From positions 32,001-96,000 of the forward strand of contig CATQHZ020000001.1 of the NCBI GenBank assembly GCA_958296135.2: a stretch of DNA of 64,000 nucleotides. The letters are read 5' to 3'. Position 1 is the first letter of the stretch. Each line of letters begins with the position of its first letter. This document shows positions 31,565 to 64,000 of the stretch, piece by piece. The notes under the pieces were generated by a model. It was not told the DNA's origin. It searched no databases and saw only the letters and a program-made list of their open reading frames with translations. The DNA comes from an uncultured Poribacteria bacterium. Its GTDB lineage: Bacteria > Poribacteria > WGA-4E > WGA-3G. A program made the translations under genes and the position numbers.

Positions 31565-32809
31565 ATGCAAATTACACAAGGCGTTAGCGTTGGGTTGGCG
31601 GCACTGCGGCGCAACAAATTGCGCTCCGTGCTCACGACGCTAGGGATAGTCATCGGCATCGCGACCGTTGTCGCCGTGGTGTCTCTCGGCGGCGGTGCTG
31701 AACAGATTGTGTTGGCCGAGTTGGAGAAAATGGGTGCCGCTAGCATGATTTACTGTTTTCGGCCAGGCTATATTAAAAGAGATGATGGCGTGTATGTGCG
31801 GAATACTACTCCCGAACAATTGGAATACGAGGACGGTGACTTTATCCTTGAAAATTGTCCTAATGTCGCCAACGTTTTAATTGCTTCCGAACGGGAATTT
31901 TCTGTCAAGCATAAACGGACGGCTCAGTCTCTCCAAGTTGATGGTGTCACCCCTGCTTACCAAGATGTGGAGAATTGGTATGTGAAACTTGGCCGGTTTC
32001 TGTCCGAGGACGACATTGAGCGAAGCGATACCGTCTGTGTTATCGGTTCCAAGGTTCGCAAGGACCTGTTTCAGGGCGCAGATCCGATTGGACTGGAACT
32101 GAAAATCGGTGACGAACGGTTTACCGTCATCGGTGTGATGGCGGAGAAGGGGAGTCAAATGTGGCAAGGCGGGTGGGATAGCCGCGTGATAATTCCCTTC
32201 TCCACGATGCGGACTCGGTTCCTCGACCCGGGGTGGCCCGGTGTCGGCTATATCCGTGTCCAAGCCAAGAGTTTTGAACAAGTCGATCAGGCACTGATGG
32301 AGCTCAAAATCGCCCTGCGGCAGCGTCACATCTCTGAAAAATACTTTGAATTTTTCACGCTAAAGGAAGCTATCAAGCAGCTGAGCTCGACAAGTCGGAC
32401 TATCCAAATTTTGCTAGGGGGTGTCGCTACGCTCGCGCTGTTCGTCGGCGGCATCGGCATTATGAACATCATGCTTGTCTCCGTGACGGAGAGAACCGGC
32501 GAAATCGGCTTGCGTAAGGCGGTTGGGGCAAAGCGGCTCGACATTCTCACCCAGTTTTTGATTGAGTCCATTGTGCTCAGCCTTTGTGGTGGGGTTATCG
32601 GCATCTTTATCGGAGTCGGCCTTGTCTTTGGAACCGTCACAGTGCTTACAACGTTCGTCATGAAAGGGATAGCCTGGCCCGTTGTTGTCTCCGTGCAAGC
32701 GACGCTCATCGCGTTTGGCGTTTCGGCGTGCATCGGGATATTCTTTGGGCTCTATCCTGCAAACAAAGCTGCCAACCTGATGCCAACAGAAGCATTGCGC
32801 CACGAATAG
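31565..32809 (+). CDS. MacB/FtsX-family ABC transporter permease
   Basis: RSVLTTLGIVIG, GGIGIMNIMLVSVTERTGEIGLRKAVGA. Confidence 0.9.
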   Translation: MQITQGVSVGLAALRRNKLRSVLTTLGIVIGIATVVAVVSLGGGAEQIVLAELEKMGAASMIYCFRPGYIKRDDGVYVRNTTPEQLEYEDGDFILENCPNVANVLIASEREFSVKHKRTAQSLQVDGVTPAYQDVENWYVKLGRFLSEDDIERSDTVCVIGSKVRKDLFQGADPIGLELKIGDERFTVIGVMAEKGSQMWQGGWDSRVIIPFSTMRTRFLDPGWPGVGYIRVQAKSFEQVDQALMELKIALRQRHISEKYFEFFTLKEAIKQLSSTSRTIQILLGGVATLALFVGGIGIMNIMLVSVTERTGEIGLRKAVGAKRLDILTQFLIESIVLSLCGGVIGIFIGVGLVFGTVTVLTTFVMKGIAWPVVVSVQATLIAFGVSACIGIFFGLYPANKAANLMPTEALRHE

Positions 32810-56565: not shown

Positions 56566-56656
56566 ACATGCAAGACTTGACAACGTCAAGACGGCCTGAG
56601 AAGACAACCATCTTATCCCTAGAGGAGTTGATCCGCGCATGGCGAACGACAAAAAC
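56566..56656 (+). repeat. dispersed repeat, copy I, abutting the fumC ATG
   Basis: caagacTTGACAACGTCAAgacggcctgag...gcgcatggcgaacgacaaaaacATG. Confidence 0.8.
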
Positions 56657-58045
56657 ATGACGAGAACTGAAACAGATAGCATGGGCACACTCCACGTGCC
56701 CTCCGATAAATATTGGGGTGCGCAGACGCAGCGCGCGCGCCAGAATTTTCACATCGGTGATGAACGAATACCGCGCCCCGCTTTATGGGCCCTCGGCACA
56801 ATTAAACAGACGGTCGCGCATGTCAATGCCGCCCTCGGTCTGCTTGAACCGCACCTCGCCGAGACTATCGGTGCCGCTGCACAAGAGGTGATTGATGGCA
56901 CGCTAGACGCACACTTCCCTCTGCCCATCTGGCAGACCGGCAGCGGCACGCAGACGAACATGAATGTCAACGAAGTCATCGCCAACCGTGCGATTGAGAT
57001 GCTCGGGGGTGAGATAGGCAGCAAGCACCCCGTTCATCCGAATGATCACGTCAATAAATCCCAATCGACGAACGATGTGTTCCCGACGGCCATCCATCTT
57101 GCGATGATTCGGCAGATTCGGGAGCATCTCTTACCGCGGCTCGCCGCACTGCGCGAGGCGTTCTCTGATAAAGCCGCTCTCTTCGCCGATATTGTCAAAA
57201 TCGGCAGGACGCATTTGATGGACGCGACACCGCTCACGCTCGGGCAAGAGTTCAGTGCCTATACCCAACAACTTACAGCCGCCGAAGCCCGCATTGAAGC
57301 GGCATTGCCCGGACTCTGCGAACTGCCCATCGGCGGCACGGCCGTCGGCACCGGGCTCAATACGCATCCCGATTATACAGCGAAGGTGGTTGCACAGTTG
57401 GCGGCGACGACAGGGTATCCACTCAAGCGCGCCCCGAATGCGTTTGAAGCACTTGCCTGCAGGGATGCTGTTCTCAATGCAAGTGCCGCTTTGAAGACTC
57501 TCGCCACCGCGCTCTTTAAAATTGCGAACGACATCCGCTGGCTGGGGTCCGGCCCCCGGTGTGGGCTCGGAGAGTTGCAGCTCCCGCCGAATGAGCCGGG
57601 GAGCTCCATTATGCCCGGCAAAGTCAACCCAACGCAGTGTGAGGCAGTGACGATGGTGTGCGCGCAAGTAATGGGCAACGATACCACGCTAACGTTTGCG
57701 AATGCAAGCGGCGCGTTGCAACTCAATGTCTTCATGCCGGTTATCGCCTATAACGCCTTGCAATCCATCCAGCTCCTCGGCGACGCAGGCGACTCTTTCC
57801 GAAAGAATTGCGTTGAAGGCATCGTGCCGAACCGAGAAAAGATCGCACAGCATCTCTCCGAATCGCTCATGTTGGTGACGGCCCTCGCACCGCATATCGG
57901 CTATGATAGTGCTGCGAAAGTCGCACAGTATGCGCATGAACACGGCTGCACCCTCAGGGAGGCAGCCGTCGCGCTGGAAGTATTAACCGCCGCCGAATTT
58001 GACACGCATGTCGTGCCAGCGGAGATGACGAAGCCGAACTTGTAG
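56657..58045 (+). CDS. fumC: class II fumarate hydratase
   Basis: [33 protein letters not shown]. Confidence 0.95.
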
Positions 58046-58102: not shown

Positions 58103-59566
58103 CTATAAAATCAACTGCAGCGTCGGTTGTAGCGGTTTGCCGGTGTAAGGATTTTTCATATCCGGCAGCCGCAGCCGCTTACCTTCAAAATGCGCTTGGA
58201 GCGACCAGGGTTGCACGCGGGGATACGTCTCTGTTCCCACGGTGACGGTGCCGAGCCGCAGGAGTTCCGCCTGCGCGTGCCGTGATGTGACAGGGTTCAA
58301 CGCGATGAATATCCCCATCGCCGCCTTCTCCCGTTCCAATGTCCATAAGAAATCGCGAAGTTGGCTCAAGTGGAATCTCCCACCTTTGACTTGCGCGAGC
58401 ACCAGTTTGGAGCCGCTGTCATCGGGCTGCAGGAGCGTGTGGCCTCTGCCATCGATGCCGCCATCGCCGGTTTGGATATCGTTCGGCGCGAACCCTTGTG
58501 AGGCACAATTCAATGCCCAGACCTCAAAGTGACGTGGATTTTCCCTGGCCAACTGCGCCGCTGCTGCAAAATCGGCTGGAATACCACTCGTCGGAATGGC
58601 TCTCCCCGGAAAGCGGTTTAACTTGATGACTTCCAATGCATGCGGCGAGATGTCGATGCCTATCCATTTGCGGTTCAATTTATCCGCAGCGGCGATTGTG
58701 GTACCACACCCACAGAAGGGATCCAGCACGATGTCGCCTTCATTAGTGGAAGCCAGAATGATGCGTTCCAAAAGTTTCAACGGCTTCTGAGTAGGATATC
58801 CAAGATATTCTCGGCTCCGCGTGGCAGTCTGAAAGGAGTGGATGTCATCCCATACATCGCCGTAGGGGATGCCGCCTTCATCTTCATAGTAGCGTCTATT
58901 GCCGCGTTGACGATACCGCCGGCCGTCCTCGTCTGTTTGCGTGAAGCTGCGCGCCATATATTCCGCTGAATAGGGTTCAAACTGCTTGTTGAACGTCGCC
59001 CGGTCCGATTTGACGTAATAGAGGATAGTGTCGTGGTCCCGAATCCAATTTGATGCTCGGCTTTTGAAACCCGAACGTGATTTCATTTGCCACACAATCT
59101 CACGGCGAAAATTTTCCGGTCCAAAGATGCAATCCATGAGCAACTTGAGGGGATGCGCCGCTGTCGCATCGCAGTGGAGGTAGACGCTGCCTGTCGGTTT
59201 GAGCAACCGATGCAGCACAGCAATGCGTTCCGCCATGTAGCTGAGATAGGCGAGCATGCCGCCTTCGCCCGGCCATTTGGCAAACGCTTCTATCACCCGA
59301 TGCGCGGGATGCGCGGGTGCATCGAGCAGATTAGCGACGCGCTCGGCGGCAGTGGCATTCCATCGCCAGGAGTCATTAAAGGCTTGGAGTTGTGCGTCGC
59401 GTGTGCCGCGATTGTCCTCGCTGGTTTCGTAAAGTTGATGATATTTGGCGTTGCTGTTAAACGGCGGATCGAGATAGCAGGTGTCGATGGTTTCATCGGG
59501 CCACTGTTGCAGCACTTCGAGGCAATCATCGTAATGTAAACTGTTAAGTTCAGGGAGTTTGAGCAT
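58103..59566 (-). CDS. N4/N6 DNA methyltransferase fused to an Mrr-like endonuclease domain
   Basis: DPPF, YPTQKP, DPFCGCGTT; C-terminal DGGIDG...QVK. Confidence 0.82.
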   Translation of the reverse strand: MLKLPELNSLHYDDCLEVLQQWPDETIDTCYLDPPFNSNAKYHQLYETSEDNRGTRDAQLQAFNDSWRWNATAAERVANLLDAPAHPAHRVIEAFAKWPGEGGMLAYLSYMAERIAVLHRLLKPTGSVYLHCDATAAHPLKLLMDCIFGPENFRREIVWQMKSRSGFKSRASNWIRDHDTILYYVKSDRATFNKQFEPYSAEYMARSFTQTDEDGRRYRQRGNRRYYEDEGGIPYGDVWDDIHSFQTATRSREYLGYPTQKPLKLLERIILASTNEGDIVLDPFCGCGTTIAAADKLNRKWIGIDISPHALEVIKLNRFPGRAIPTSGIPADFAAAAQLARENPRHFEVWALNCASQGFAPNDIQTGDGGIDGRGHTLLQPDDSGSKLVLAQVKGGRFHLSQLRDFLWTLEREKAAMGIFIALNPVTSRHAQAELLRLGTVTVGTETYPRVQPWSLQAHFEGKRLRLPDMKNPYTGKPLQPTLQLIL

Positions 59567-59781
59567 GGGAGACCTCTTGTGCGGGATCATCTGAGCTCTT
59601 CCCAGATCAGCATCGGGCTCCCGATGTCACTAACATCGGAGGGTTGCAAGCCCTAACGACTCAGGTGAATTTAGTATTAGAGTTGTAGGCGCGCGTTGTA
59701 AGCGCGCCTACGGGTGCCGTTGCACGGAACAAAGCCTCGCGCAACGGCACCCGAGACCGGTCCAACTCAGGCGAGCTGGAC

Positions 59782-62700
59782 TTAGGGACCCGGTGTCTCC
59801 ACGGGTTCGTCGGTGTCAACCTCCGTGATTGCCAGATTCTGGAAATCGTCAAACCCACTTCCTGCAGGGATGAGCCGGCCGAGGATGACGTTCTCCTTCA
59901 ACCCGAAGAGCTTGTCTGTCTGTCCCTTGACAGCGGCATCTGTCAGCACCTTCGTCGTCTGCTGGAACGAGGCGGCGGAGATGAAACTCTCTGTGCTGAG
60001 TGAGGCGCGGCTAATGCCTTGCAGAATGGGTTCGCCGGTAGCGGGTTCCCCGCCTGCATCGGTAACCAGCGCGTTGACTTGGGCGAATTTCCAGCGTGGC
60101 ACCTCACCGTTCTCGTGGAAGGGCGTATCGCCGGGTTCAAGCACGCGCACCTTCGTCAACATTTGTTTGACGATGGTCTCGAGGTGCTTGTCGTTGATGG
60201 CCCGTCCGCCGTAAACCTTTTGGATTTCCTCAACGAGGTATGTCCAGACTGCTTCCTCGCCTTCAATGGCCACATCTTCAATGAAGACACGCCCGATTCT
60301 GAGGATATCGTGCGGGTTGAGGTATCCATCGGTGAGCGGTTGCCCCGCCTCAACCCGGTCGCCTTCGGTGACGCGTCGTTTTTCGTCAGGAATGGCGTAG
60401 AGGCGGCTTTCGTGCCCTTCATCAACGATACGGTATGTCGGCACACCCGCTTTGGTGCCAGCGGACTCAATGAATCCCTCAATCTCAGCGATTTCTGCCG
60501 CGTCCTCACGTTTTGGACGACGCGCCTCAAAAAGGTCTGTCACGCGCGGAATCCCTGCAACGATGTCCATGTTCGCAGTCTTTTCATGGAGTTCGGCAAG
60601 GGTTTGTTCCACTTTGATAGGCTCGCCCTCTTTGACAGAGAAGGAGTAACCGGCGGTGATGAGATGCGGCACCCGATGCCCATCGGCCGTCTCTACCTCA
60701 ATGTGCATCCGCAGTGCAGGTTCATCGGTATCAAATCCGGGGTAGTGGTCGAACGCGCTTTGGTATTCGACTTCGGATAATTCGTCCCCTACCTTATACG
60801 GACAATTCGGGTGATGCACAGCCGTAACGGTATACTTCCGGAGGGCACGGTAGGCCGCCGCGGTGAGGATTTCGGCCCTATCAAAGGGAAACTGCGTCTT
60901 CGGTTCGTCGACGTAGACCTGATACTTCTCGCAGGCGGCCTGATAGTCGGTTTCAGAAAGATTCTGTTCGACTGTCATGCCGCACTCTGGGTTGAGAACT
61001 GCCTTAACCTGCCAGAATTTCACGAGGCGCGGCTTCTCCCACAGCGAGACAGGGCGCTCTAAATTGTCAACGACGTGCTTATAGCGCGCTACCACAGTGA
61101 AGTCGGCCTTCGCATCGGCCTTCGCATCGGCCTTCGCATCGGTTGACGCGTCTTCTGGAAGCCCAATTGCCGCCACTTCTGGTTCGTCCGGAATGACTCC
61201 AAAGAGGGGTTCAACGTCGAACCCTTTGAATTTCTGTTGGAGTTTCTTGTACTCCTTATCCGTGAGTTCGTCGCCGCTTTCAACGGGGAGTCCTGGGTGA
61301 TAGACAGCAAGCACGCGATGTCGGGGGATGCCCTTATCCTTAATCGTCGGTTCCGTTTTGCGCCGCGTTTTGTCTCGCGTCTCCATTTTGCGTCGCGCCT
61401 GATACTCCGCTTCGGTGAGTCGCTGGACAGGTTCGGCAGCTAAGGGTTGCCACGTTTCCAATTCCGCCTGCGTTAGGATATCGCCCGGCTTAACGCCTGG
61501 AGAGTCCTTTTGCGCTTTCTTGTAGGCGGCGTTGGAAATATCCTGTCCAACCTCCAGTTTGCAGGCGGAATGGAAAACTTCGGTAACGCGCCAGACGTGC
61601 TTGGAGCCCTTCCCGGTAAAAGCGGGCCCTGTTAACGCTTCTGCGGTGAACCCAGGCTTCGCTTCGGTGACGCGAGAGTAGTGCCCTTCGGGCACATCGT
61701 AGGAGTGTTCGACATCAAACGCTTTGAACTTCCGGCGGTATGCCGATGCCTCCTTGGGTGTCATCAGTTCACCCTTCTGCAAAGGGCTGCCCGAGCAATG
61801 AACGGCGGCGATGCGATTGAGGCGCGTGGCTTCAAGCGAACCAACGTGGGCTTCAATGCCACGGAATTGATTCCGCCCCTTTTTTGCCTCGACATCGCTC
61901 ATCAAAGTGCCAGGGGCAAGTGTGCATTCGGGATGATGGATATAGGTGACGCGATGCCGCAACTTCTGGACATCAAAACCCATCCAGCGTGCAAGCATTG
62001 CGTCTTTATCCGTTGTCGTTAAATCCTGACCCGGTTTCAACGGGCAGTCACGATGATGCACTGCCGTGACGTGGTGCAACACTTCCGAGACTCTCTCGGA
62101 TTCAAAGGGCCGATAGTTGGCACACGCTTCTTCGTAAGCATAGCGCGTCAGCATTTCGCCGGCGTGCAGCGGGGCGTTTGCGTCGATAACGTAGACAGGG
62201 TTCGGGGCTTCCTCGAAAGGCGTAAACCACGGGGAAATCTCCCCTGCGGCAACTATCTGTCCGATTTCATAAGGGAAGTCCGGGTGCGCGCTCTCGGTGA
62301 TACGGTAAACGCGTTCAAAAGGCGTGCCTTCCGCAAGGGATGTATCAGCAGAAACCAGGTCTCCCGCCATTGCAGGTGACGTGTCTACCGGCATCGCTGT
62401 CTCCGCTATATCTTCAAGCGACTCCACAGCCGTTTCCGAACTGGGCACCAATTCTTCAACCGACTCGAAAATCTCGCCGGTTTCCGGGATACGGTAACAC
62501 CATTCGCCATCAAAGCCGTTCCGAATCTCTGCCTTGTGCTCCCCGATTTCTGCTTCGGTAAGCAGGTCCCCGGGGCGAACGTTGACAGCAGCAAGCTGGA
62601 CATCCGCTATCTCGCGTTTTTCGGTTGCAAAGCGAGGCAGACCGTAGGTGATTCTCGCTTGATGCCACTGTGCAGCAGAAAGCCGGTCGCCGACTTGCAA

Positions 62701-64000
62701 GTGGCAATCTTTCTCGTGAACAGCGGTTACCCGATGCTGCCATGCCTCAGTATCAAAACCTTTGTAACGTTGCGCGTTTTCGGAGAATTGCTTCTCGCTC
62801 AGCAGCTCATCTACGTTCAAGTGGCACTTCGGATGCGTGACGCGCGTGACTTTGTAGGCTGGCGCGTCGAGGTTCGCACGGTTTCCGGCGTTCGACAGGC
62901 TATTGGGACTTGTGGAACCGCCTTCTTCCGATGCTGCAGTGGCATCGGGGTGCTTTACTGGGGAAATCCCGGGGCCCGTGGATATCCAGAGTTCGCCTTC
63001 CTTGCGGACGGTGATGCCGGGGTGGAAATCCCGGAAGCGGACGGTGCCGCTCGCTTTGGCAAGAATTTTGCGCTGGCGGGCATCGGAGACTTCCTCTACT
63101 GCACCGCCGGTGTGGAACGTCCGCATCGTGAGTTGCGTACCCGGTTCACCAATGGATTGCGCGGCGATAATCCCGATCGCCTCGCCGACAGAGACGCGGA
63201 GGTTCGTCGTCAAATCGTACCCGTAGCATTTCGCGCACGCACCCTCCTCTGTTTCGCACGTGAGCACGGAACGGACGCTGACCTTTTTTATCCCACTCTC
63301 TTCAATCCGCTGCGCGGCCGCTGGAGTGATGATGGCATCTGCAGCGACAAGCAGTTCGTCGGTGACAGGATGTAGGATGTCTTCAGTAGCTGTCCGACCC
63401 GTAATTTTAAAACCGAGTTCTCCGCCTTCGGTGGCAAATTTCTTAATGCCGTGGAACGTGCCGCAGTCCTCTGCCGTAACGCGCACGTCTTGCGCAACAT
63501 CTACCAATTTGCGCGTCAGGTAACCTGAGGCTGCTGTCCGCATCGCCGTGTCAACCAACCCTTTTCGGGAACCATAGGTGGAGTTGAAATAGTCGATTAC
63601 GTCTAAGCCATCGCGATAAGAGGTGGTAATTGGCGGCAGCAAAATTTCACCGCTCTGCTTCGCTTTCAGGCCGATAATCGCACTGATTTGCATGAACGGA
63701 TTCTTCCGGGCCCGCGCACCGCTATCCGCCATGATATGCACAGGACTGAAACCTTCGACAAGCCCACCATGCTTGCTGAAGTACTCGGATAACTCAGCCG
63801 CTGAGTTCGCCTTCAGGAGTTCAATGGCATTCCCACGTTCAACCAGGTGCGTCTCCAATTCGGGCAGCGTGGCGAACATAATGTCTTCCATCTCGTTGAG
63901 CGCCTTAAACCACAAGCGGATCTGCTCGTTCTCGAGTTCTTCCGTATCGGCGGTTGCAGCGGGAGCATTGAGAAGCGCATCGATCGCCTTCTGTGTTCGT
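59782..64000 (-). CDS. rpoC: RNA polymerase beta' subunit, 3' part (frame open to the window edge), with a giant trigger-loop insertion
   Basis: MADSGAR, RKGLVDTA, SGYLTR, AAQSIGEPGTQLTMRTFH, LFEAR, SAASFQ, GLKENVILGRLIPAG. Confidence 0.95.
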   Translation of the reverse strand, partial: RTQKAIDALLNAPAATADTEELENEQIRLWFKALNEMEDIMFATLPELETHLVERGNAIELLKANSAAELSEYFSKHGGLVEGFSPVHIMADSGARARKNPFMQISAIIGLKAKQSGEILLPPITTSYRDGLDVIDYFNSTYGSRKGLVDTAMRTAASGYLTRKLVDVAQDVRVTAEDCGTFHGIKKFATEGGELGFKITGRTATEDILHPVTDELLVAADAIITPAAAQRIEESGIKKVSVRSVLTCETEEGACAKCYGYDLTTNLRVSVGEAIGIIAAQSIGEPGTQLTMRTFHTGGAVEEVSDARQRKILAKASGTVRFRDFHPGITVRKEGELWISTGPGISPVKHPDATAASEEGGSTSPNSLSNAGNRANLDAPAYKVTRVTHPKCHLNVDELLSEKQFSENAQRYKGFDTEAWQHRVTAVHEKDCHLQVGDRLSAAQWHQARITYGLPRFATEKREIADVQLAAVNVRPGDLLTEAEIGEHKAEIRNGFDGEWCYRIPETGEIFESVEELVPSSETAVESLEDIAETAMPVDTSPAMAGDLVSADTSLAEGTPFERVYRITESAHPDFPYEIGQIVAAGEISPWFTPFEEAPNPVYVIDANAPLHAGEMLTRYAYEEACANYRPFESERVSEVLHHVTAVHHRDCPLKPGQDLTTTDKDAMLARWMGFDVQKLRHRVTYIHHPECTLAPGTLMSDVEAKKGRNQFRGIEAHVGSLEATRLNRIAAVHCSGSPLQKGELMTPKEASAYRRKFKAFDVEHSYDVPEGHYSRVTEAKPGFTAEALTGPAFTGKGSKHVWRVTEVFHSACKLEVGQDISNAAYKKAQKDSPGVKPGDILTQAELETWQPLAAEPVQRLTEAEYQARRKMETRDKTRRKTEPTIKDKGIPRHRVLAVYHPGLPVESGDELTDKEYKKLQQKFKGFDVEPLFGVIPDEPEVAAIGLPEDASTDAKADAKADAKADFTVVARYKHVVDNLERPVSLWEKPRLVKFWQVKAVLNPECGMTVEQNLSETDYQAACEKYQVYVDEPKTQFPFDRAEILTAAAYRALRKYTVTAVHHPNCPYKVGDELSEVEYQSAFDHYPGFDTDEPALRMHIEVETADGHRVPHLITAGYSFSVKEGEPIKVEQTLAELHEKTANMDIVAGIPRVTDLFEARRPKREDAAEIAEIEGFIESAGTKAGVPTYRIVDEGHESRLYAIPDEKRRVTEGDRVEAGQPLTDGYLNPHDILRIGRVFIEDVAIEGEEAVWTYLVEEIQKVYGGRAINDKHLETIVKQMLTKVRVLEPGDTPFHENGEVPRWKFAQVNALVTDAGGEPATGEPILQGISRASLSTESFISAASFQQTTKVLTDAAVKGQTDKLFGLKENVILGRLIPAGSGFDDFQNLAITEVDTDEPVETPGP

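Follow-up and report, generated by a model that had tools for sequence, protein, structure and literature searches.

The DNA analyzed here, a window of 64,000 nt (the whole stretch under study, positions 32,001 to 96,000 of the forward strand of contig CATQHZ020000001.1 in assembly GCA_958296135.2, from an uncultured Poribacteria bacterium), closes within rpoC, the gene for the β′ subunit of RNA polymerase. The window holds the 3′ portion of a frame that runs to 2116 codons in the genome (2106 aa when counted from the first Met), and the protein encoded by this portion matches the NCBIfam model rpoC TIGR02386 (E = 1.7e-155) as well as the Pfam family RNA_pol_Rpb1_5 (E = 1.7e-52), the latter in two separate stretches. 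Within the gene, a very long insertion interrupts the trigger loop, the mobile catalytic element found in all cellular RNA polymerases, and the composition, origin, and possible role of this insertion are the subject of the present report.

The insertion sits at an SI3-type position, after TFHxGG and before DIxxG[IL]PR, between the two trigger-loop helices and at the same point at which β′ of outgroup genomes carries an SI3 of 193 to 203 aa. It accounts for 94.3 kDa of the protein, with a net charge of -32 and a pI of 5.6. An earlier reading of this DNA from its letters alone (hereafter, the sequence-only reading) had noted a gap of 845 aa, or 2535 nt, between TFHTGG and DIVAGIPRV, assigned it to the SI3 site, quoted strings from its flanks together with one example module, and likened its two ends to halves of a sandwich-barrel hybrid motif (SBHM). 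The coordinates prove exact, the quoted strings occur as written in the translation, the site is confirmed, and the two ends are indeed halves of one SBHM. In the AlphaFold2 (AF2) model, four short strands form the N-terminal half at one end of the insert and five strands the C-terminal half at the other; the C-terminal half has a weak match to the Pfam family Biotin_lipoyl (E = 0.011) and matches the small domain of cytochrome f in a Foldseek search (probability of 0.97 to 0.98 over 41 to 47 columns, with 30 to 32% identity), and the SBHM flank also matches plastid β″. A profile of the outgroup SI3 gives very weak alignments only (-0.5 and 1.7 bits), positions 105 to 130 aligning to the N-terminal half and positions 151 to 195 to the C-terminal half; we offer as a suggestion only that the SBHM kept here may be the second of the two present in the outgroups, the first having been lost in the family that carries the array. 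SBHM structure is limited to these flanks, and the insert as a whole is not composed of SBHM (HABAS) repeats: the ~750 aa between the flanks consist of helix-containing units of ~42 aa and linkers.

Read from the N terminus, the N-terminal SBHM half is followed by linker 1, modules 1 and 2 with one decayed copy, linker 2, two further decayed copies, modules 3 to 7 with some β-rich spacers and a basic stretch, linker 3, modules 8 and 9, and the C-terminal SBHM half (Table 1, which includes the local confidence of the model as the predicted local distance difference test, pLDDT, and profile scores from hidden Markov models, HMMs). The (DAKA)n run of linker 3 is encoded by a perfect tandem of 3.3 copies of 12 nt at 61103-61142, the sole recent DNA-level repeat within the insert.

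Table 1. Features of rpoC and its trigger-loop insertion; positions are those of the window and residues those of full-length β′ (bD2 and bD7, native small left claw [sLC] elements of β′, are introduced in the text)
Feature	Position	Strand	Residues	Remarks
rpoC (RNA polymerase β′), C-terminal 1405 codons plus stop	59782..63999	-		5′ end beyond window edge
Trigger-loop N-terminal motif TFHTGG	63103..63120	-	995-1000	
Trigger-loop insertion, exactly 845 aa (2535 nt)	60568..63102	-	1001-1845	
Split SBHM, N-terminal half	62959..63102	-	1001-1048	AF2 β strands at pLDDT 86-93
Linker 1, low complexity, predicted disordered	62869..62958	-	1049-1078	pLDDT <50 at model residues 64-90
Module 1	62734..62865	-	1080-1123	58.6 bits with family HMM, 43.6 bits leave-one-out
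Module 2	62617..62745	-	1120-1162	Asp/Glu at the “His” position, as in native bD2
Degenerate module without first strand	62491..62583	-	1174-1204	15.6 bits
Linker 2, strongly acidic (net -14 over 58 aa), predicted disordered	62317..62490	-	1205-1262	
Degenerate module, first half only	62257..62316	-	1263-1282	13.0 bits
Degenerate module	62092..62190	-	1305-1337	20.4 bits
Module 3	61954..62085	-	1340-1383	Part of three-module AF2 model
Module 4	61837..61965	-	1380-1422	Part of three-module AF2 model
Module 5	61693..61824	-	1427-1470	Best superposition on β′ bD7 of solved structures
Module 6	61465..61602	-	1501-1546	
Two half-modules (helix part only), then basic stretch	61387..61485	-	1540-1572	
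Module 7 (example quoted by the sequence-only reading)	61195..61329	-	1592-1636	Leu for Cys in 46/48 orthologues
Linker 3, acidic, with (DAKA)n run	61099..61194	-	1637-1668	
Module 8	60889..61023	-	1694-1738	
Module 9, top-scoring copy	60706..60843	-	1754-1799	72.8 bits, 55.4 bits leave-one-out
Split SBHM, C-terminal half	60568..60705	-	1800-1845	
Trigger-loop C-terminal motif DIVAGIPRV	60541..60567	-	1846-1854	
Native β′-bD7, second native sLC-fold element	60028..60150	-	1985-2025	

Nine clear modules of ~42 aa and about four partial or degenerate ones make up the array, together with two helix-only half-modules, a tally that fits the 10 to 13 degenerate modules counted from the letters alone. 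When each of the nine clear modules was scored with an HMM of the other eight, scores ranged from 23.1 to 55.4 bits, against a best score of no more than 2.8 bits among 200 shuffled inserts used as the control; the partial and degenerate copies reach 13 to 20 bits with a family-wide HMM. The modules are visible to profile methods only: pairwise BLASTP of the insert against itself yields no match at E ≤ 1e-3, and DNA repeat finders detect no long direct repeats in it, from which we conclude that the copies are old and diverged. In the AF2 models, a module begins with a long strand, which a turn of ~11 residues joins to a short strand; a 10-residue helix and a final strand follow, and this final strand often continues into the first strand of the next module.

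The closest counterpart of the module lies in the β′ core. In the protein itself, an HMM of the nine insert modules gives one match outside the insert, at residues 174 to 194. The homologue set consists of the query and 120 listed proteins, with both trigger-loop motifs found in 117 of the 121. In these homologues, the nine-module HMM produces 103 matches before the trigger loop (maximum, 33.5 bits; median, 21.7 bits), and an insert-only family HMM, built from 1156 modules and read at an independent E value below 1e-3, places 103 matches N-terminal of the trigger loop, 95 of them beginning at residues 150 to 174, and just 3 C-terminal of it. An hhalign comparison of the insert-only profile with a β′ core alignment from which the insert had been cut out (1236 match columns, the jaw SBHM and bD5 included) returns a single match, at columns 159 to 195, with a probability of 96.5% and an E value of 7.1e-10; the next-best alignment has a probability of 0.07%. 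The same site emerges from three array-less outgroup β′ proteins, in which the native element is the sole positively scoring match (28.6 to 36.6 bits with the family HMM and 19.3 to 23.1 bits with the nine-module HMM) and already has the D-P-x-C-P-L turn seen in the modules. A search of the nine-module profile against all PDB sequences has one match at E ≤ 10, to residues 142 to 162 of Bacillus subtilis β′ (E = 0.091).

The matched site is β′-bD2, an element of ~40 aa with the “small left claw” (sLC) fold (CATH 3.30.60.280), which the main text of Alvarez-Carreno et al. (2024, PMC11515920) describes together with a homologous copy, bD7, located toward the β′ C terminus, the two belonging to one CATH superfamily. 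Sequence-profile similarity to a native sLC element is found for bD2 only, and the native bD7 of this protein has no sequence-profile match to the modules. The segment of the E. coli β′ clamp to which the sequence-only reading had likened the module is this same bD2, and the hhalign, outgroup, PDB, and structural matches support its central proposal that the module derives from this part of β′. The conclusion that the modules are diverged paralogues of the enzyme’s own clamp element bD2, with its sLC fold, holds.

Structure prediction leads to the same pair of native elements by a separate route. An AF2 model of the insert (876 residues, from an alignment of 48 homologues) has a mean pLDDT of 78.5 and a predicted template modeling score (pTM) of 0.48; the module blocks mostly lie between 79 and 95, and three stretches fall below 50 (model residues 64-90, 236-274, and 655-678). 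A smaller model of three modules (residues 1336-1472; pLDDT of 76.1, pTM of 0.41) was aligned with VIA-align to 48,161 representative chains, of which the top four are all β′ or β″: the tobacco plastid-encoded RNA polymerase ranks first (Z of 5.2, root mean square deviation [rmsd] of 2.1 Å over 46 residues), followed by cyanobacterial β′2 (Z of 4.7) and Mycobacterium tuberculosis β′ (Z of 4.7, rmsd of 1.6 Å), with the M. tuberculosis clamp-insertion fragment 5uh7_B at rank 4 (Z of 4.4, rmsd of 3.7 Å). In a second comparison, ranked by Foldseek, the top 50 are all β′ matched at the bD7 site (Z of 4.7 to 5.6, rmsd of 1.4 to 2.5 Å over 40 to 51 residues), corresponding to positions 1161-1211 in M. 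tuberculosis, 1375-1425 in Thermus thermophilus, 1251-1310 in E. coli, and 1074-1124 in B. subtilis. The predicted model superposes as an sLC fold of ~40 to 45 aa on solved sLC elements, although the absolute Z is low. It is the agreement of independent sequence and structure searches, both pointing to the two native sLC elements of β′, that carries the main weight. No match at E ≤ 0.001 was returned by Foldseek for the whole 876-residue model, whose only believable local match is at the SBHM flank, and no SBHM or BEAN proteins occur among the matches listed in either structural ranking, an absence that excludes nothing. Leads to EF-hand proteins, obtained from the ESM Atlas with the three-module piece (best score, 0.81), were rejected as falling below the level reached by shuffled sequences.

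The array is a property of one family within the phylum. All five homologues that bear an organism name are labeled “Candidatus Poribacteria bacterium,” and in the 117 proteins with both trigger-loop motifs the insert measures 618 to 1202 aa and contains 9 to 17 profile matches per protein; by comparison, among β′ proteins from four outgroup genomes, three have an SI3 of 193, 198, and 203 aa within a total length of 1411 to 1434 aa. When the nine-module profile was run over 176 genomes of the phylum, 107 of the 111 other genomes of the window’s own family (f1) showed 5 to 18 matches, the remainder being one genome with a single match and three without any (81%, 90%, and 83% complete). Exactly one match was found in each of the 11 genomes of family f2 and in 24 of the 29 of f3, and none in the 24 genomes of families f4 to f11. 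The β′ protein of the fourth outgroup genome, of family f4, contains a different trigger-loop insert, 369 aa long and charged, with a repeated Lys/Asp-rich segment and no sLC modules. The direction of change is clear from this distribution: because bD2 of the array-less outgroups already carries the D-P-x-C-P-L turn, the native element with its motif came before the array, whose origin lies in the ancestor of one family. In a search of 1.84 billion representative proteins, the nine-module profile matched 27 at E ≤ 0.001, comprising β′ and β pieces, three tetratricopeptide repeat (TPR) proteins whose modules are genuine, and two matches set aside as spurious, P0127 (a WW-repeat protein of 3144 aa) and P0146, neither of which matches the family-wide HMM.

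Outside the trigger loop, the module has a small number of other addresses. Across the 51,721 six-frame open reading frames of at least 50 aa in its own genome, it is present only in rpoC and the adjacent rpoB. RpoB (98375-102940 of genome contig C1, minus strand, outside the window and directly upstream of rpoC) has five tandem modules of 23 to 38 bits, at about residues 232 to 425 of the frame, in the SI1 site of the β lobe and directly before a canonical BEAN-like segment. Among nine family genomes checked, RpoB has three to six copies in six and none in three, which makes the RpoB array the younger of the two and dispensable for the β′ array. A complex prediction of the β′ array (residues 1079-1800) with the RpoB array scored 0.00 and has no weight for or against binding. 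In some relatives, the β′ protein itself has further copies: P0071, P0057, P0074, and P0100 have one or two extra tandem modules at the native bD2 site (aa ~145-300), and P0025 has three near the β′ C terminus, after the trigger loop (aa 2074-2192). The module also exists outside RNA polymerase, in TPR proteins from public metagenomes (P0132, 938 aa; P0133, 837 aa; P0139, 452 aa), where two to four genuine modules alternate with half-modules, a pairing of module and half-module that recurs at 61387-61602 in the window; no TPR protein with modules was found in the six-frame scan of the window’s own genome.

Foreign domains, too, occur in these large proteins. The restriction-endonuclease fold PF18741 (REase_MTES_1575) is present in rpoC-sized frames of 8 of 112 family genomes, and its matches (E of 1e-15 to 1e-27) pass the curated cutoff. 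It falls within the trigger-loop insert in P0012 (aa 1385-1476) and P0104 (aa 1158-1259) and after it in P0025 (aa 1899-1991). The domain is not in the window’s protein; within this family, its usual carrier is a protein of ~1570 to 1860 aa.

The insert is under purifying selection. Compared with two genomes of the same genus (dS of 0.4 to 1.2, such that the figures are rough), dN/dS is 0.27 to 0.29 for the insert, 0.25 to 0.30 for the clear modules, 0.55 to 0.65 for the disordered linkers, and 0.09 to 0.21 for the β′ core. Four sequencing runs of one sample each have a contig that spans 60400-63300 with no mismatches, and two of these contigs carry one or two single-base insertions; since the assembly may itself derive from this sample, which is hence not independent, the independent support for the insert is its presence in more than 100 other genomes.

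Taken as a whole, we consider it probable, at roughly 0.8, that the insertion is an SI3-site array of bD2-derived mini-domains borne on a split SBHM and belonging to one Poribacteria family. A single split SBHM would have been kept as the base, with some 13 mini-domains of ~42 aa nested within it, bD2 having been copied into SI3 and then amplified in the ancestor of the family. The part of this that concerns architecture (split SBHM plus sLC array) and derivation from bD2 is the firmest, and very probably correct. Several observations nevertheless weigh against it. The structural Z values of 4.4 to 5.6 are low, below the value of ~8 that is regarded as safe; this is to be expected for a domain of 45 residues but falls short of proof. 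The nearest element differs between the two approaches, being bD7 by structure and bD2 by sequence, and among the top four chains the bD2 region is touched only by 5uh7_B. The models are predictions with pTM values of 0.48 and 0.41, which make any overall shape of the array tentative, and the PDB sequence match is marginal. The protein’s own bD2 (residues 159-199, outside the window) no longer carries the D-P-x-C-P-L turn, its hairpin is longer, and it scores 12 to 13 bits against the module profile, compared with 36 to 40 bits for bD2 of most relatives, a weak match because its clade lost the motif. In some comparisons, dS is close to saturation, which makes the selection estimates rough. Finally, no Gre factor was found anywhere in the phylum, with or without the array (see below), so this lack does not point to the array in particular.

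Of the competing explanations, the one that survives best is that the His and Cys residues in successive modules bind metal (zinc) at a series of sites, making the array metal dependent or redox sensing. The sequence-only reading had drawn attention to recurrent His and Cys that could bind metal, and the first half of this stands: His makes up 34 of the 845 residues of the insert but 9 of the 560 residues that the window encodes outside it, a 2.5-fold enrichment, and many modules share an H-P-x-C turn. Over 1156 modules, the His position of this turn is His in 75% and Asp in 18%, the Cys position is Cys in 64%, Leu in 14%, Thr in 6%, Ile in 4%, and Ser in 4%, and in modules 1, 3, and 4, between 37 and 47 of 48 orthologues retain the pair. 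The second half did not fare as well. No module has a conserved four-ligand set, or the three or four conserved Cys/His of a structural zinc site, each offering at most two semiconserved candidates; module 7 keeps its His in 48 of 48 orthologues and yet has Leu at the Cys position in nearly all of them, as expected of a buried residue; and native bD2 has Asp in place of the His, a feature that module 2 resembles in pairing Asp/Glu with Cys, while bD2 of the array-less outgroups keeps a lone Cys without His. With only two semiconserved residues, one of them exchangeable with Leu, the pair seems to fit turn capping plus a buried residue better than a metal site, and we regard a metal-binding array as decidedly improbable, with some room left for sites that might form between modules.

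A source for the modules other than bD2 was considered in the BEAN/BBM2 domain, the usual insertion of β that occurs once in β′ as bD5. The five copies in RpoB lie at SI1 directly before a BEAN-like segment, and half of a BEAN domain has a similar strand-strand-helix order and a G-D/E turn, according to the main text of PMC11515920; the modules, too, have a G-[DE] turn. They have, however, one helix per unit, where BEAN consists of two antiparallel bracket elements (helix-strand-strand, then strand-strand-helix) with a T-G-D/E motif. In addition, the core alignment that includes bD5 gives no second match, the modules and the BEAN-like segment in RpoB are distinct neighbors, and the top structural matches are to bD7 and not to bD5, such that, judged from the comparison with bD5, we allow this origin a very small chance. 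We hold it to be just as remote that the likeness to bD2 reflects convergence or chance in a short new repeat. The modules are short, the PDB match and the Z values are at the margin, and the protein’s own bD2 reaches only ~12 bits, but a single match in 1236 core columns, at E = 7e-10, scores of 29 to 37 bits to bD2 of array-less outgroups with a shared D-P-x-C-P-L turn, and extra tandem copies at the bD2 site itself in some relatives all speak for common descent.

That the insert is an ordinary, if more diverged, SI3 of SBHM (HABAS) repeats is suggested by its location, by the SBHM halves at both of its ends, and by the fact that published trigger-loop insertions are all described as SBHM/HABAS in the sources consulted (main text of PMC11515920; 10.1101/2021.01.27.428476). 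The modules, however, are not all-β SBHMs with a GD-box-like strand: DSSP assigns one 10-residue helix and only three strands to each ~42-aa unit in both AF2 models, hhalign finds no match of the module profile to the jaw SBHM of the core, and the best structural matches are the sLC positions of β′, which together render this explanation scarcely credible. As for a segment absent from the mature enzyme (an intein, a mobile element, or an assembly error), its unusual size and the landing of PF18741 in related frames are outweighed by a search at E ≤ 1 in which the protein matched no family of inteins, Hint domains, or homing endonucleases, by junction residues (an initial Ala and a final Asn-Met followed by Asp) that lack the intein signature of Cys/Ser/Thr and His-Asn, by an open frame, by an insert whose order and content are preserved across 107 of 111 family genomes (a good number of which consist of a single contig), and by the dN/dS of 0.27 and the spanning contigs of four runs, and it is vanishingly improbable.

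What the sequence shows is a modular segment of β′, in frame and under selection, at the trigger-loop tip. If the array is indeed a set of bD2 paralogues within SI3, we would expect its 94 kDa to be translated as part of β′, a presence in the mature enzyme for which the purifying selection is indirect support only, and to have no catalytic role. By analogy with other SI3 elements, it is probably a noncatalytic, regulatory or structural arm borne by the trigger loop, which would ride at the enzyme surface and move at every loop folding. Such an arm may tune elongation and pausing, since it must move with every nucleotide-addition cycle, and may present a docking or shielding surface near the secondary and downstream-DNA channels; that it makes any one particular contact, for example by shielding the secondary channel, is doubtful. 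The analogy draws on E. coli Si3, which flexible linkers attach to the trigger-loop helices and which lies on the shelf and jaw, can adopt alternative positions through a rotation of 121 degrees, and makes contact with a secondary-channel factor, and on E. coli β lobe-Si1, which forms the opposite wall of the downstream-DNA channel (both as presented in parts of PMC6970531); it also draws on cyanobacterial Si3, which is reported in PMC10895346 to swing widely on loop folding and to cover the Gre/DksA site.

The GreA/GreB N-terminal domain was detected in none of the 176 genomes of the phylum, with nine control bacteria matched, and no match to the DksA/TraR zinc finger was found in the window’s own genome, which is 94.7% complete. 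We dropped the lack of Gre as an explanation of the array: the array-less families, with their ordinary SI3, also lack the GreA N-terminal domain, and the missing factor cannot, therefore, be tied to the array. A bolder proposal, in which the clamp mini-domain is a proliferating building block, the trigger-loop arm and the RpoB array (a shorter one, on the opposite wall of the downstream-DNA and secondary channels in this genus) together form a gate that replaces Gre-type control, and the insert serves as a landing pad for foreign domains, seems to us unlikely; were it true, regulation of pausing and cleavage would rest on the array in a phylum where no Gre was found.

The surroundings of the gene call for brief mention. 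Ribosomal protein genes often follow rpoC; here, the gene directly downstream encodes a 495-aa N6/N4 DNA methylase (58103-59590, minus strand; PF01555, E = 7e-49), and the next after it is the fumarase C gene (56639-58045, plus strand). Elsewhere in the assembly, contig C2 (143,886 bases) has a G+C content of 36.8% against 54.4% in the 5.0-Mb chromosome contig, which could mark it as plasmid or phage DNA or as contamination introduced at binning.

These findings matter in several respects. A site whose bacterial insertions have so far been described as stacks of SBHM carries a different block, taken from the enzyme’s own clamp and multiplied about a dozen times. The result is a well-dated example of a domain copied and amplified within one gene, in an enzyme that is both essential and slow to evolve. 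Sister families of the same order, with an SI3 of ~200 aa, provide a clean comparison for the effect of a huge load on the trigger loop, in which elongation, pausing, and proofreading are the properties to compare. In addition, the array of modules offers a sharp sequence-level marker of this Poribacteria family.

Measured against known systems, the insertion combines familiar and unfamiliar features, as follows.

(i) E. coli SI3 (β′In6; 188 aa, two SBHMs) shares with it the same point in the trigger loop, an SBHM base, and the tether to the trigger-loop helices, and its size is like that of the SI3 in the array-less sister families (193 to 203 aa). Unlike it, the insert here has 845 aa, a single detectable SBHM that is split, and a bulk made of an sLC-type tandem array with disordered linkers.

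(ii) Cyanobacterial Si3 is likewise a very large elaboration nested in a split SBHM and belongs to a lineage that lacks Gre factors (in the Synechococcus control genome, which is not among the nine controls that matched, there was no match to the GreA N-terminal domain either). It differs in that its building block is the SBHM, not the sLC, and in that β′ is split in cyanobacteria but not here; moreover, it is described as well ordered, whereas the present array is broken by disordered acidic linkers. The insert is also the larger of the two, at 845 aa in this protein and up to 1202 aa in its relatives. Some algal plastid rpoC2 genes are longer still. Cyanobacterial Si3 is called the largest known in a 2024 abstract, and the trigger-loop insertions described in the parts of the literature consulted (main text of PMC11515920; 10.1101/2021.01.27.428476) comprise SBHM/HABAS only, with two in most Gracilicutes, two to five in many lineages, and nine in cyanobacteria.

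(iii) The native elements β′-bD2 and β′-bD7 (sLC; CATH 3.30.60.280) are the closest relatives of the modules, which share the profile of the former and superpose on the latter. Extra sLC insertions are known within bD2, bD4, bD5, or bD7 of a few Firmicutes and DST species (main text of PMC11515920); the modules described here differ from these in lying in the trigger loop (uD5) and in forming arrays of 9 to 17 copies, neither of which is in the main text of that paper.

(iv) The mycobacterial MtbSI and the insertion at the bD2 site of Thermus are similarly lineage-specific elaborations tied to the same clamp element, except that there different folds are inserted into bD2, while here bD2 itself is copied to other sites.

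In our literature search, which did not extend to supplements and subscription surveys, we found no description of this poribacterial insert, and “Poribacteria” is absent from the main text of PMC11515920, whose supplementary Table S4 of rare β′ variants lay outside this check. We rate the site and the principle as known and three things as new: the building block, its origin from the enzyme’s own clamp element, and the record size of the insert.

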